DNA of 64,000 nucleotides from Schmidtea polychroa (Eukaryota). The notes under the pieces are model-generated. The model was not told the DNA's origin. It ran no database searches and saw nothing but the letters and a program-made list of their open reading frames with translations. The translations under genes and the position numbers were made by a program. The first letter of the stretch is position 1. Each line of letters starts with the position of its first letter. The stretch covers positions 15,378,001 through 15,442,000 of the forward strand of contig CM097885.1 of assembly GCA_044892525.1 (NCBI GenBank), in the 5' to 3' direction. Below are positions 3,806 to 17,430 of this stretch, one piece after another.

Positions 3806-3887
3806 ACAATGAGTAGTGAATAGTAAGGACTCCAGGACACTTTCAAGGTCATCCCAATGTCCAGATCAAATATAGGTCAATCGAATC

Positions 3888-4335
3888 ATTTTTTTTTTAA
3901 TTAACATTTTATTTAATTACTTCTTTTTAATTTTTTTTTTTTTTTTTTTTTTTTTTCATTTTAATTTTATTAATTAATTATTTTATTATGTTTTATTTTA
4001 ATTTATTACATTTAATTAATTTATTAGTTTATTAATATTTTATTTTAATTACTTACGCTATTTAATTATTATTATTATTATTATTATTTTTTTTTTTTTA
4101 TTTTATTTTTTTTTTTTTTTAATTAATTTATTTATTTTTTAATTTTATTTAATTACTTCTATTTTTTTTTTCTTTTTAATTTTCTTAATTAATTATTTTA
4201 TTATGCTTTTATTTTAGTATTATTTTATTATTTTATTATTTTATTTATTATTATTATTTTTTTTTATTTTTTTTTTTTATTTTTTTATTTTTTATTTTAT
4301 TTTTTATTTTTTATTTTTTTTTTTTTTTAATTTTA
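3888..4335. repeat. Nearly pure A/T low-complexity subterminal tract (mirror at about 16915-17350)
   Basis: T-rich homopolymers and (ATT)n, inverted in the other arm with length differences. Confidence 0.85.
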
Positions 4336-4672
4336 CATTTACATTATATTCTAACAAGAGGTAAATTATAACGATAATATTTCAATTTGAATAAAATTTT
4401 AATTAGTAATTATTCAATTTGAATAAATTTTAATTAGAAATTATTTAATTTATTATAAAATAAAACGCTGAGTTAATTTTAGATAAACTGGATATTAATA
4501 TTTCGGAAAAAATAAATAAATAAATAAAATAAACACAAAAATAATATTTCTTACTTGAAACTAATTATCTAAATTAATTGGACAAATGAATAATTAAATG
4601 ATAAAACACATTTTAATTAACTAAGTCAAACAATTCACAATATATATTTTATTATTCACATAAATTTAATTG

Positions 4673-12598: not shown

Positions 12599-15500
12599 AG
12601 TGAATAATTTTTTATTCTCTATCTAATATTAATGATTATTTTCTTTTAGTGAACGGATGCAGTTTATATAAATTTTGTATTGCCGAAAGTCATGAAGATG
12701 TGGAGAACTGTAAATCAGTTACATCATCATATTTCAAGATAAATGACTCTACCTTATCGGGTTACATATGTCCGGAATGTCTCATTATATCACCAGGTAG
12801 GTGGTTAATGTTTGTACGACAACACGGACACCATCTTAGAAGATTCGAAGAAACGAAGAGCAGGATGATCACTAAAAGTAATACTCTTTCTACTATTAAC
12901 AATTATTAATTTTTTATAGTACAACCGAAAATGAATACATCATACGATCCTAAGCAGATTAAAGAATATGTTACAAGTTATGTTATTTAAGTTGTTTAAT
13001 ATTAATTATAAATATAGTTAGACAAAACTCTGGCACCACAAAACGAAAGTCAATATTTTACGGAAATGGAGACTCTAACATACAATTGTGTCCACGTCGG
13101 GAGTCTGACTTAAATGGTTCTCGTGTTGAATTGACAAGCGATGTATCTGCAATTAATTCTCCTGACATTGTTGTTCCAGATTGTCTCATCAGAGAAATAG
13201 AAGATCATATTCAACGAATGGGTACAGTAAAAATCCAATTTGGACTTTGTGCAGAGTTTATCAAAGAGGATGGTGAAATTAAAAAATGGTGTTTGTCGAA
13301 TAAAGCAATTACAATGTCATCTTCATTTATTAATGATGGAATTGAAAAATTAAAAGAAAAGTTGGAGAAATACACTCAACAAAGTAGTGGGTGGAGAATT
13401 CATAAAATATTAGAAGTTACTATGATTTTAACTAAATTATCAGACATAATACATGTATCTGGTAAGTTTATTTACATTATTATATATATAAATCAAGATA
13501 TTTACTTAGGTTCAAGTTACATTAAAACGCCAAATTACCTGAAAAACTGCCAGGCTTTAGTTAATGTTCAAAATAATGATCAATTCTGCTTTTTATATAG
13601 CATACTGGCCGTATTACATTATGATGACATAAAACACCACAGAGAAAGAGTAATGAAATATAATTTAAGTGGTAATATATATTTATATCATTCTAAAAAT
13701 ATATATATATTTAGAGTTAAAATGGAAATCAGATTGGTTTCCAATGAAGTTGGTTAACATTTGCCAATTTGAGGCAATGAATCCTAATCTAGCGATCAAT
13801 GTTCTCAAATATAATAAAGATCCAATTAAACAAAAAACTAATGATATTTTCAAGAATCCGTTCGTTGACTTGGTATATAGAAGTACTTCGACGGGATGTC
13901 AATTATATCTCTTATTGATTGAAGAAGGTAATATTTCTTTTAATCATTAAAAATATTAACTAAATTTTAGAATTAAATTATCATTTTTTGGCTGTAACTA
14001 ATCTCGATCGACTGCTCAATTACAGAGATAGAGTAGAAGGAGTCAGAATCCAATCACATTGGTGTCATACGTGTCTTCATGGGTTTCAAAAACGTCCTGC
14101 TTTTGAAAGACATATAGGTCTTTGTAGGAAGAATGTGGAGCGGACGACTCTATACTCAATGCCAGAGAATAAATATATCGAATTTAAAGACTGGAGTAAA
14201 ACTATAAAACAGCAGTTTGTTGTCTACGCGGACTTTGAATCAATATTACCTCTAGATGACAAGCACTTCCAAAAACATGAGCCGATTGCATCTGAATTTG
14301 TGCTTCTTCATCAAGGTTGTCCGATTCGAAATGAAACATTTGTTGGGAAAAACTGTATCATTCAGTTTATACAAGCATTGGATGATATAGCTACAGACAT
14401 AGTTTATCCGTGGTATAAAATTAATGGATCGAAGGAAATGATGGAACTCACTTGGGAACAGCAGGAAGAATTTACGAATCAAACTCATTGCTACCTTTGT
14501 AAAAAGATTATCAATATACCTGTTCGGGATCATGATCATTTTACCGGTCAATATCTCGGAGCAGCGTGTCAAGATTGTAATTTGGCTAGAAGAATCAATC
14601 CGTCTTTACCTGTTGTATTTCATAATCTTCGTGGATATGACATTCATCATATATTAAAATATGCAATTGGAAAATTCCCCGATTGGAATTTAATTGTTAT
14701 TCCTCAATCAACAGAAAAGGTTCTCACACTTACAGCGACATCGAAAGGCAGAAGAATTAGATTCATTGATTCTTTACAATTTTTAAATAGCAGCTTGGCA
14801 AATTTATCAAAAAACTTGCCACGTCTTCCACTTACTTCAAAGATTTTCAATTCGCATTTAATAACTGGTAAAGGCATATTTCCTTATGATATGGCTACAT
14901 CAATGGATGTTTTACAGTCAATAACAGAATTACCACCGATTTGGGAGGGAGTTAGTCAAGAAGATTATATACATGCAAATCGAATCTGGCGACAATACAA
15001 CTGTGAGACACTGCAGGATTACATGCTAGTATATCTCAAGTTGGATGTTTTTCTGTTGGCCGATGTTTTTGAAGCTTTCAGAGAAAAAACATTTGACGAA
15101 GATGGACTTGAGGCTCTATCGTTTGTTTCCATACCCGGATTAAGTTGGGCATCAGCTATTAAACAGTTACCTGAACCAGTAGAACTTATTCAAGATCCAG
15201 AGCTTTACCGTTTATTTGAAGCTGGTATTCGTGGTGGAATGACATTTATCAACAAACATCATGTTGAAGCTGATGAATCAACACAAATGTCATACCTAGA
15301 TGTTAATAATTTATATGGATGGGCGCTGTCGCAAAAACTTCCTGTTGGTGAATTTAGATGGATAAATGATCAGACTGAAATGAATGGTATTGTTGAAAGA
15401 TGTGCAAATGGGGATAAGTTTGATGGAGATCTTGGATATGTTCTAGAGGTTGACATCGTCATTCCTGATAGTATACAAGATAAACTAGATGATTTACCTA

Positions 15501-16576
15501 TAGCTCCTGAGCTTTGTTATCCACCTGGTAGTAAAGTTGAAAAGCTGTTGTTAACTCATGAGCCTAAGAAAAACTATGTAGTTAATGGTAGAGTTTTGAC
15601 AGAGTGGTTGAGTTACGGCGCAAAAGTCACAAAAGTTAATCGTGCTGTAGAATTCAAGCAAGTGGCTATTTTCAAAGGTTATATTGATTACAATACCAAA
15701 ATGAGAGCAGCTAGTACAGATTCGTTTCAGCGAGATTATTATAAGTTAAAGAACAACAGTTTATACGGTAAAACTGTGGAAAACTTGAAGAAACGTATAA
15801 ATTTGAGATTATGCAGCAAAAGCAAAAGATTGATAACTTATTGTAGTAATCCTATGTTTCGTCGTAGCATCAAGATTGCGGATGATCTCATTGCTGTTAT
15901 ACTCAATAAGGAAATTGTGTGTTTAGATAGACCAATGTATATTGGACAAACCGTACTTGATTTATCCAAACTTCGCATGTACCAGTTTCAATATAAAGAA
16001 CTACAGAGTTATAGAGAAGAATTCAATTGTCAAATTAATATCGTAGCCGGTGACACAGATTCCTTCTTTTTAGAGTGTAAAAATGTAGATTTACGCTTAC
16101 AACTATATCCAAAAATGATTGCCGATGGGCTCCTAGATACTTCAAATTATCCAGTGACTGATCCATTGTTCTCAGATAAAATTTGTTCGGTAATCGGGAA
16201 ATTCAAGGATGAGAATAAAGGAAATCAATATAAAGAATGGGTGTTTCTTCGACCCAAGTGCTACTCACTCCAAGGCGATAAAAACACTCTAAAAGCCAAA
16301 GGAATAAGACTTACAAACTCTAATCTTACACATGAAGCCTATAAAAAAGTGTATACTGATGGTGGAACAGTGAGCATCCCACAAAAAAGAATAGGAAGTG
16401 TCAATCATCAGTTGTATACTTTCATGACAGAAAAACGAGCTCTCCAATGTTTGGACGATAAAAGGTATTGGTACAATTGTAATGAAAGTTATGCCTACGG
16501 TCACTATAAGATTCGCCAAATGCATATTGCAACTGCTATGTCTAGAAATGAATGCAAATCGAAACAAGCACTTTAA
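12599..16576 (+). CDS. Protein-primed family B DNA polymerase, spliced (nested element, right arm; about 1236 aa predicted)
   Basis: Exons 12599, 12650-12877, 12920-12976, 13018-13461, 13510-13671, 13715-13927 and 13971-16576 join via GT..AG introns into one open frame collinear with the outer PolB. Exonuclease and polymerase motifs are intact; CxxC..RDHDH..CxxC Zn-binding insert present. Confidence 0.9.
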
Positions 16577-17430
16577 CAATTAAATTTATGTGAATAATAA
16601 AATATATATTGTGAATTGTTTGACTTAGTTAATTAAAATGTGTTTTATCATTTAATTATTCATTTGTCCAATTAATTTAGATAATTAGTTTCAAGTAAGA
16701 AATATTATTTTTGTGTTTATTTTATTTATTTATTTATTTTTTCCGAAATATTAATATCCAGTTTATCTAAAATTAACTCAGCGTTTTATTTTATAATAAA
16801 TTAAATAATTTCTAATTAAAATTTATTCAAATTGAATAATTACTAATTAAAATTTTATTCAAATTGAAATATTATCGTTATAATTTACCTCTTGTTAGAA
16901 TATAATGTAAATGTAAAATTAAAAAAAAAAATAAATAAAAAATAAAAAATAAAATAAAAAATAAAAAAAAAAAAATAAAAATAAAAAAAAATAATAATAA
17001 TAAATAAAATAATAAAATAATAAAATAATACTAAAATAAAAGCATAATAAAATAATTAATTAAGAAAATTAAAAAGAAAAAAAAAAAATAGAAGTAATTA
17101 AATAAAATTAAAAAATAAATAAATTAATTAAAAAAAAAAATAAAAAAAAAAAAAATAATAATAATAATAATAATTAAATAGCGTAAGTAATTAAAATAAA
17201 ATATTAATAAACTAATAAATTAATTAAATGTAATAAATTAAAATAAAACATAATAAAATAATTAATTAATAAAATTAAAATGAAAAAAAAAAAAAAAAAA
17301 AAAAAAAAATTAAAAAGAAGTAATTAAATAAAATGTTAATTAAAAAAAAATGATTCGATTGACCTATATTTGATCTGGACATTGGGATGACCTTGAAAGT
17401 GTCCTGGAGTCCTTACTATTCACTACTACA

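Follow-up and report, generated by a model that had tools for sequence, protein, structure and literature searches.

The window that we analyzed is a stretch of 64,000 nucleotides from Schmidtea polychroa (assembly GCA_044892525.1, contig CM097885.1, positions 15,378,001 to 15,442,000 of the forward strand). Within it, positions 3812-17427 form a 13,616-bp palindromic element with ends of the Polinton type, inserted into a larger Polinton that we call the host, or outer, Polinton. The element is flanked on either side by a direct 6-bp target-site duplication (TSD), ACAATG, which at the left junction is followed from 3812 by AGTAGTGAATAG..., and at the right junction is preceded by ...CTATTCACTACT, ending at 17427. 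The outermost sequences are AGTAGT at the left and ACTACT at the right. Inverted repeats of 6.6 kb make up 97% of the element, and each arm comprises, from the outside in, the terminus, 0.86 kb of AT-rich DNA, an outward-pointing gene for a protein-primed DNA polymerase (PolB), the region upstream of that gene, and a set of 144-bp repeats. The features are as follows, with the strand given where one was assigned (ORF, open reading frame).

3806-3811: left copy of the TSD, ACAATG; a single ACAATG is present in 3/3 uninterrupted sister copies of the host Polinton
3812-10518: left arm, 6,707 bp, from the inverted-repeat search and BLAST
3812-3841, forward strand: terminal 30-mer AGTAGTGAATAG..., beginning with the triplet repeat AGT-AGT and identical in 11/11 full copies read
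3842-4672: subterminal non-coding region, AT-rich and of low complexity
4673-7282, reverse strand: main exon of the left-arm PolB gene, 869 codons from stop to stop, reading towards the terminus, with exonuclease and polymerase motifs and an HNH/Endonuclease VII-like insert
7276-7318, reverse strand: predicted PolB intron of 43 nt, GT..AG, read by eye; joining across it brings the reading back into frame and agrees with the outer PolB, which has no intron
7532-7574, reverse strand: PolB intron of 43 nt, GT..AG, predicted from sequence only
7737-7784, reverse strand: PolB intron of 48 nt, GT..AG, in frame, likewise predicted
7785-8283, reverse strand: N-terminal PolB exon region, 36% identical to residues 274-464 of the outer PolB
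8337-8642, reverse strand: probable first PolB coding exon, matching residues 6-80 of the outer PolB at E 2e-5, its N-terminus resembling a Cys/His zinc finger
9373-10418: 144-bp tandem array, 7.2 copies, at the inner end of the left arm
10519-10871: central spacer (loop), unique, 353 bp
10641-10812: 27-bp tandem array, 6.4 copies, inside the central spacer
10872-17427: right arm, 6,556 bp, mirroring the left arm
10972-11873: mirrored 144-bp tandem array, 6.2 copies
13988-16576, forward strand: main ORF of the right-arm PolB gene, 862 aa
17428-17433: right copy of the TSD, ACAATG, whose ATG is the start codon of the host Polinton integrase

The repeat finder aligns the arms as an inverted pair of 4,549 nt at 99% identity (5783-10331/10915-15463), a second of 1,526 nt at 100% (4258-5783/15466-16991), and a pair in the AT-rich ends (3812-4181/17058-17427) whose ungapped identity of 86% results from a difference in poly-T length. 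By gapped BLAST the two halves are 99.5% identical over 6,478 bp. The spacer is set by the innermost inverted pair, and the difference in length between the arms lies in the 144-bp arrays. Tandem repeats fill only about 1 kb of each arm, which is otherwise mostly unique coding sequence. Within the spacer there are three perfect TGACGTCA palindromes (of CRE/ATF type; cyclic AMP response element/activating transcription factor) in 38 bp, at 10531-10568. This sequence occurs nowhere else in the window; 0.44 sites were expected, and three were reached in 1/100 shuffles. The cluster may be a candidate central enhancer serving both of the diverging PolB genes. An Rfam scan of positions 1000-31300 matched no family.

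The main PolB ORF is recognized by PF03175 in both arms (4673-7258, reverse strand, E 2e-30; 13988-16576, forward strand, E 4e-31). The main exon is 55% identical over 849 aa to the PolB of the host Polinton, an intron-less protein of 1,388 aa. Two further ORF pieces continue the match, 7296-7577 (37% identity to outer residues 452-532) and 7489-8283 (36% to residues 274-464), and excision of three short GT..AG introns is predicted to give a continuous reading frame that follows the outer protein. In contigs of four public runs, none recorded as RNA, no joint corresponding to these introns was present over 4600-9330, exons and introns being covered alike; the sole joint nearby, 7511>7585, is non-canonical. 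All columns that are invariant in an alignment of 18 sequences, those of the exonuclease and polymerase motifs among them, are retained in the inner PolB. Between the exonuclease motifs, at residues ~163-200, there is a Cys/His insert resembling HNH/Endonuclease VII (PF02945, E 2.5e-4, below the Pfam cut-off), which is also found in the host PolB and in most PolB relatives. The main ORF is open in 21/22 arms of the copies described below, and its sole length changes are of -3 and +6 nt. The intron-bearing segments, unlike the main ORF, vary by lengths that are not multiples of three.

No other recognizable gene was found. In the left arm and spacer, 12 ORFs other than PolB gave no believable Pfam match at E ≤ 1, and tblastn of 19 non-PolB proteins, drawn from the outer element and a related metagenomic Polinton, gave no match on the element at E ≤ 0.01. 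The integrase was sought specifically: no scanned ORF matched the rve domain in Pfam, and tblastn with two Polinton integrases gave nothing at E ≤ 1. The morphogenetic module (major and minor capsid proteins, A32-like ATPase and adenovirus-type protease) was likewise not found by Pfam or by tblastn at E ≤ 0.01. An earlier sequence-only reading of this DNA had described the ends, the TSD, arms of 6707 and 6556 bp, a 353-bp spacer and one outward PolB gene per arm, with no integrase, capsid, ATPase or protease. The repeat finder, BLAST, Pfam and the 19-protein search agree with that description throughout.

The element belongs to a family spread through the genome. Its terminal 30-mer, with up to two mismatches, has 115+109 matches on the two strands against 0+0 for the reversed control, excluding a chance origin; the terminal 14-mer, matched exactly, has 147+143 against 10+7. 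This corresponds to about 135 termini per strand and roughly 130 copies. We paired termini among the first 100 places listed for each search, those for the 14-mer all lying on one contig (C1). With the 30-mer there were 43 plus/minus pairs and 14 unpaired termini, and 31/43 pairs span 12-14.1 kb. With the 14-mer there were 46 pairs and 8 unpaired, 38/46 spanning 11.7-14.1 kb.

Ten further full copies were fetched, and 10/10 are palindromic over 5.9-6.7 kb at 98.8-99.9% identity. Inverted arms are present in 11/11 further copies tested, over the whole arm in ten and over 2.7 kb in the eleventh. A perfect direct 6-bp TSD flanks 10/11 full copies: ACAATG, TATATT, CAGGTC, TGCAAA, CAAAGC, TACAAT, AATGAA, TATATA, TGCAGG and ATTGTA. 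The last is on a small contig that is a reverse-complemented duplicate haplotype of the TACAAT locus, and so there are nine independent loci with nine different TSDs. Spread by segmental duplication only was considered, and is contradicted by the different TSDs. The eleventh copy, at 70.1 Mb on contig C2 (L033/L034, C2:70.16-70.17 Mb), has mirrored flanks, TATGAA/TTCATA, and here the palindrome runs on into the flank; a second locus with mirror symmetry extending past the element lies at C1:0.07-0.09 Mb (L051/L052). Each of these may be a mis-assembly, or else a larger inverted duplication that the palindrome seeded. At the nine other loci no flank matches the host Polinton, and therefore the nesting seen in the window is incidental. 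A spacer of the window type is present in 8/9 other copies of the subfamily to which the window copy belongs (subfamily A), differing in length through the 27-bp repeat, and this common spacer indicates that the subfamily A palindrome had one origin.

Three shorter terminus pairs, of 6.7, 7.0 and 7.5 kb, have the same ends but have lost internal sequence asymmetrically. Clear TSDs, CATTAT and GTATTG, flank two of these derivatives; the third is in a microsatellite, with an ambiguous TSD. The only Polinton-sized pair among the matches listed, of 17.4 kb on C1, consists of a full copy whose flanks are mirrored, next to a truncated fragment. Among the termini listed, the pairs examined include no complete Polinton with ends like these; three longer pairs, of 14.8, 23.8 and 40.9 kb, are also listed. 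We find the PolB arm in contigs of public runs under three organism labels, and thus the family or its close relatives extend beyond the assembled strain. For the two other labels (runs X2, X14 and X18), one had many PolB-arm contigs at 99% or above and the other mostly contigs at 90-95%.

The sequence-only reading had held that several full palindromic copies with different 6-bp TSDs would establish a mobile family, and that a single copy whose arm was one end of an ordinary complete Polinton elsewhere would point to a one-off rearrangement. The nine loci provide the former, and instead of the latter we find many palindromic copies and no such Polinton among the termini listed. We conclude that this is a real, mobile and integrase-less family, palindromic at every locus examined, and confirmed to be neither an artefact nor a one-off event. 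Near-perfect palindromes of 13 kb at more than 100 loci are likely to be hotspots of genome instability and of assembly error.

We compared the arms with one another using the first 5.45 kb of each of 22 arms. Substitution divergence between the two arms of a copy is 0-0.81%, and between copies it has a mean of 0.66% and a range of 0.07-2.06%, the minimum probably coming from the duplicate-haplotype pair. Site patterns were then counted in the 20 arms of ten loci, with the duplicate contig dropped, over 5,294 ungapped columns. At 84 biallelic sites the minor allele is on both arms of every copy that carries it, 61 of these being confined to one copy and 23 shared by 2-5 copies. Singletons on a single arm account for 76 sites. 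At only three sites is the minor allele shared by at least two copies, each with it on a single arm; 11 sites are mixed, and two have more than two alleles. The comparison of 84 both-arm sites with three common one-arm sites indicates that changes arising during the spread of the family were copied to the partner arm. Thus the arms evolve in concert. Copies once inserted then gain changes on single arms, as the singletons show.

A second subfamily, B, gives the same picture at greater distance. About 60 termini match the 14-mer and not the 30-mer, and these too pair at ~12-14 kb. In the one copy that we examined (C1:10205123-10218608), PolB is 97.4% identical to that of the window copy over 2,547 bp (2.6% diverged) and has no premature stop. 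The mirrored stretch of its arms is identical at 2,680/2,680 positions, so that the ~66 differences in 2.5 kb between subfamilies A and B are all mirrored on both B arms. The geometric center of this copy, 831 bp (L132, C1:10211450-10212280), is unrelated to the center of the window element, is not self-complementary and contains tandem repeats of ~27 nt. At least six other such pairs on C1 have this center at their midpoint, at 98-100% identity. Its part from ~300 to 831 also recurs at 92-94% as minus/plus pairs 10.7-14.8 kb apart (4,311 candidates at first look); this part resembles the ends of a further abundant element family, and the resemblance suggests kinship.

Comparison of the A and B PolB genes over 841 codons gives 42 synonymous and 24 non-synonymous changes, with a synonymous divergence (dS) of 0.086, a non-synonymous divergence (dN) of 0.012 and dN/dS of 0.14. 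PolB was under strong purifying selection between the subfamilies.

We return to the locus. The host Polinton carries the following features.

1138-31194: host Polinton, 16.4 kb without the insert, TSD ATCGTT, ends AGTAGGTAGATG..., with terminal inverted repeats (TIRs) of ~1.4 kb
2644-3267: A32-like ATPase
17431-18511: integrase (rve and chromo domains)
21178-21528: adenovirus-type protease
21674-25840, reverse strand: PolB, 1,388 aa, intron-less
27774-28208, reverse strand: Bcl-2-like gene (PF00452, 1e-7)
28914-29363, forward strand: TBP-like gene (PF00352, 2e-14)

The palindromic element has inserted exactly between the stop codon of the host ORF 3203-3805 and the ATG of the integrase. Duplication of ACAATG preserves the start codon, and the integrase now lies 13.6 kb from its upstream sequence. 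The stretch of host Polinton at the insertion site has at least 40 scored copies in the genome, at 81-100% identity, and 3/3 sister copies examined contain the empty site TTCATAA-ACAATG-GGTGGT with a single ACAATG, as the sequence-only reading had anticipated (TAA-ACAATG-GGTGGT). The inner and outer termini have only AGTAG in common. The inner ends start AGT-AGT (3812-3817), and the outer ends start AGTAGGTAG (1138-1146). Short terminal reiterations of this kind suit protein priming by sliding back or jumping back, as with the CATCAT of adenovirus. The non-coding parts of the inner element and the host Polinton have no similarity. Origin of the inner element as a deletion product of the host, which the sequence-only reading had also discounted, is rejected: PolB is only 55% identical and of another clade, and the termini and non-coding parts differ. 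Elsewhere among the accessory genes, a related metagenomic Polinton (L061) carries a TBP-like gene at 11330-11779 and a ubiquitin-conjugating-enzyme gene at 13480-13977. The Bcl-2-like, TBP-like and ubiquitin-conjugating genes are putatively host-type regulators carried as accessory cargo. Further along the window, 60895-61350 comprises three tandem units of ~154 bp, 95-99% identical and unrelated to the element.

Among the 8,000 candidates scored, 3,182 proteins match the inner PolB at E ≤ 0.001. The best full-length relatives are metagenomic proteins of 62-63% identity, and one fragment of 515 aa is 95% identical. In a FastTree phylogeny of 18 sequences the inner PolB groups with P0001 and P0002 (support 0.994) and the host PolB with P0018, P0007 and P0011 (support 1.0), so that a PolB tree of the kind proposed earlier places the two in different clades. 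A single-protein search of viral contigs for related loci gave none; an alignment-based search of metagenome contigs gave 71. Seven of the 71 were examined for long inverted arms, which were present in 0/7, one having TIRs of 133 bp. The nearest long contigs, L061 and L073, the two loci examined for genes, encode PolB, an rve integrase and an A32-like ATPase in the usual order. The nearest relatives that could be examined are ordinary Polintons, and the lineage was therefore derived from such elements.

Taking these observations together, we think it probable that this is a young, non-autonomous family that derives from Polintons/Mavericks and is propagated in the form of whole-length palindromes, with a snap-back origin, arms regenerated from one arm, and a helper integrase acting in trans. 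Its starting point would have been a complete Polinton, one end of which was replicated by protein-primed strand displacement and yielded a snap-back (copy-back) product. Once displaced, a strand would form a hairpin of 6.6 kb, with the origin recreated at its blunt end. In each cycle both arms would be rebuilt from one: a nascent or displaced strand might fold back at the center and serve as its own template, or the hairpin might be repaired internally. Each new insertion would start with identical arms that later drift apart, in the manner of long terminal repeats. Descent of both arms from one would explain why variants are mirrored and why young copies have identical arms. Integration would rely on an integrase from autonomous Polintons, of which the genome has many near-identical copies, the host family being one candidate helper, and packaging too may be borrowed.

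Several points weigh against this account. AGTAG is all that the termini have in common with those of the host Polinton, and a helper with matching ends was not found. We infer derivation from one end of a complete Polinton, and a non-palindromic parent was not found among the termini listed. The different center of subfamily B implies either that the center was replaced or that palindromes arose more than once. Snap-back replication is read from genomic sequence and not from observed free or hairpin DNA, protein-linked ends or transcripts. Within subfamily A constraint on PolB is not detectable, with 41/58 both-arm variants being non-synonymous against 45 expected (p=0.13); among singletons the figure is 11/20 (p=0.05), and the crude dN/dS values are 0.62 and 0.31. 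The constraint seen between A and B could have acted in a complete ancestor, and the element may not need its own PolB. Lastly, gene conversion between the arms within the chromosome could also yield concerted arms.

The snap-back account can be taken further. It is possible, and we put it forward tentatively, that the family is a heritable snap-back satellite of Polinton viruses, that is, a genome of the defective-interfering type that escaped into the germline. Its own PolB would replicate it extrachromosomally, with the arms rebuilt by turning round at the center, and it would use the integrase, and perhaps the capsid, of complete Polintons. If this is so, the mirrored variants would be the first genomic footprint of animal Polintons being copied by their own PolB before reinsertion, and the center of subfamily B would mark a second, independent turn-round event.

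The alternative that survives best is gene conversion between arms in the chromosome, as occurs in sex-chromosome palindromes, the palindrome having arisen once and been inherited on each transposition. Gene conversion is known to act on long inverted repeats whose spacers are short. Conversion would give the 84 both-arm variants equally well, and the same spacer in 8/9 other subfamily A copies fits a single origin. Against this, the arms of inserted copies do drift, by up to 0.81% and with 76 single-arm singletons, from which it follows that chromosomal conversion is not efficient at these loci; yet the ~66 differences between subfamilies are mirrored on both arms. We therefore regard conversion as the sole cause as doubtful.

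Alternatively the elements could be passive passengers, in which a fold-back accident happened to catch the PolB end, helper enzymes perform both replication and integration, and the ORFs are open only through youth. Arm divergence of 0-0.8% does indicate young copies, the ratio of non-synonymous to synonymous change within subfamily A is not significantly below neutral, and the contigs of public runs, none recorded as RNA, provided no evidence of expression. This is nevertheless difficult to reconcile with the dN/dS of 0.14 between subfamilies and the absence of a premature stop in 841 codons, with insertions and deletions in the main ORF being only multiples of three when neighboring intron-bearing segments carry many others, and with retention of all the conserved catalytic columns. 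Moreover, a helper PolB would need to recognize ends having only five nucleotides in common with those of the host family. We consider the passenger explanation unlikely.

We attach very little probability to a new kind of autonomous element, in which PolB with its HNH/Endonuclease VII-like insert, or an unrecognized product, integrates the DNA with no helper. It would account for the failure to find a helper with the same termini, and a His-Me finger motif resembling PF02945 does lie inside PolB (below the cut-off, as noted above). The same insert is however present in the host PolB and in most relatives that do encode rve integrases, and in the available portions of PMC8097293 and PMC10748475 it is the rve-type Polinton integrase that is marked by AG...CT ends and a 6-bp TSD. 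An assembly artefact or one-off fold-back rearrangement of a single locus has a negligible chance of being correct and for the family as a whole is ruled out: the mirrored flanks at C2 70.1 Mb and C1 0.07 Mb could be mis-assemblies around long palindromes, but at the nine independent loci the direct TSDs differ and the left flank is unrelated to the right, where an artefactual fold-back would mirror the flank, the ~135 termini per strand form size-consistent pairs, the empty site is present in sister copies, and the PolB arm recurs in public-run contigs under three organism labels.

The snap-back account predicts molecules that could be sought, namely free DNA of 13 kb, linear or hairpin, whose ends are linked to protein. 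Only the polymerase and the ends are kept in this family, which exists only as whole-length palindromes and their deletion derivatives and carries mirrored changes; it is thus a natural experiment on the replication step, and separates the requirement for a replicase from that for an integrase.

A literature search returned no published description of a palindromic, PolB-only Polinton derivative, in line with the sequence-only reading, which knew of none, although an unpublished Repbase entry is possible. There is no such element in the accessible parts of PMC6431247, PMC8532177, PMC8097293, PMC10748475, PMC13506859, PMC4196379 or a Dugesia preprint. The element is like a Polinton/Maverick in its AG...CT ends, AGT-AGT terminal repeat, 6-bp TSD and TIRs, and in having a protein-primed PolB of the same clade as those of complete Polintons in the window and in metagenomes. 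Polintons/Mavericks were reportedly described as self-synthesizing transposons by Kapitonov & Jurka in 2006 and Pritham et al. in 2007. To our knowledge their multiplication has never been shown directly, and the self-synthesis model, in which an excised strand is copied by protein priming and then integrated, rests on gene content alone. The text available of PMC4196379 proposes that Polintons replicate by protein priming, with a terminal tandem repeat of 1-3 bp and a single-stranded racket-like intermediate. In what is accessible of PMC8097293 and PMC10748475, the Polinton/Maverick features are 5'-AG...CT-3' ends, a 6-bp TSD and the rve-type integrase signature; TIRs are given as 100-1,500 bp for Polintons (PMC10748475) and 46-1,447 bp for vertebrate Mavericks (PMC8097293). 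Unlike an autonomous Polinton/Maverick, the element is without integrase, capsid, ATPase and protease; its inverted repeats are 6.6 kb, and PolB is present twice, once in each arm.

Linear protein-primed plasmids and transpovirons are also small linear replicons with a protein-primed PolB or long TIRs, and rely on other elements for their spread. They are extrachromosomal, and we know of no integrated families of them with 6-bp TSDs, nor of TIRs that extend over the whole molecule.

The element resembles foldback transposons (Drosophila FB and Galileo, from the accessible part of PMC3573991) in its very long inverted arms with tandem repeats, its potential to fold back and its internally deleted derivatives. 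Galileo is placed there in the P-element superfamily (PMC3573991). Unlike those of Foldback and Galileo, the ends and TSD of the element are of the Polinton type, and the arms are mostly unique coding sequence and not largely tandem repeats. We know of no foldback-type transposon, FB and Galileo included, that encodes a DNA polymerase.

Adenovirus incomplete-particle DNA is said to have long inverted repeats (Daniell, 1976). Snapback genomes are known in adeno-associated virus, from the portion available of PMC8235507. The element has its nearest functional counterparts in the snap-back or copy-back defective viral genomes described in the accessible text of PMC13506859, which it resembles in its reverse-complement duplication of near whole length, short loop, loss of most genes and presumed dependence on a helper. 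Those viral genomes are transient by-products of infection (PMC13506859, same text), whereas the element is germline-integrated, transposing and multi-copy, with subfamilies and an intact replicase gene. It would thus extend the concept of the defective-interfering, satellite-like parasite to the virus-like transposons of animals.

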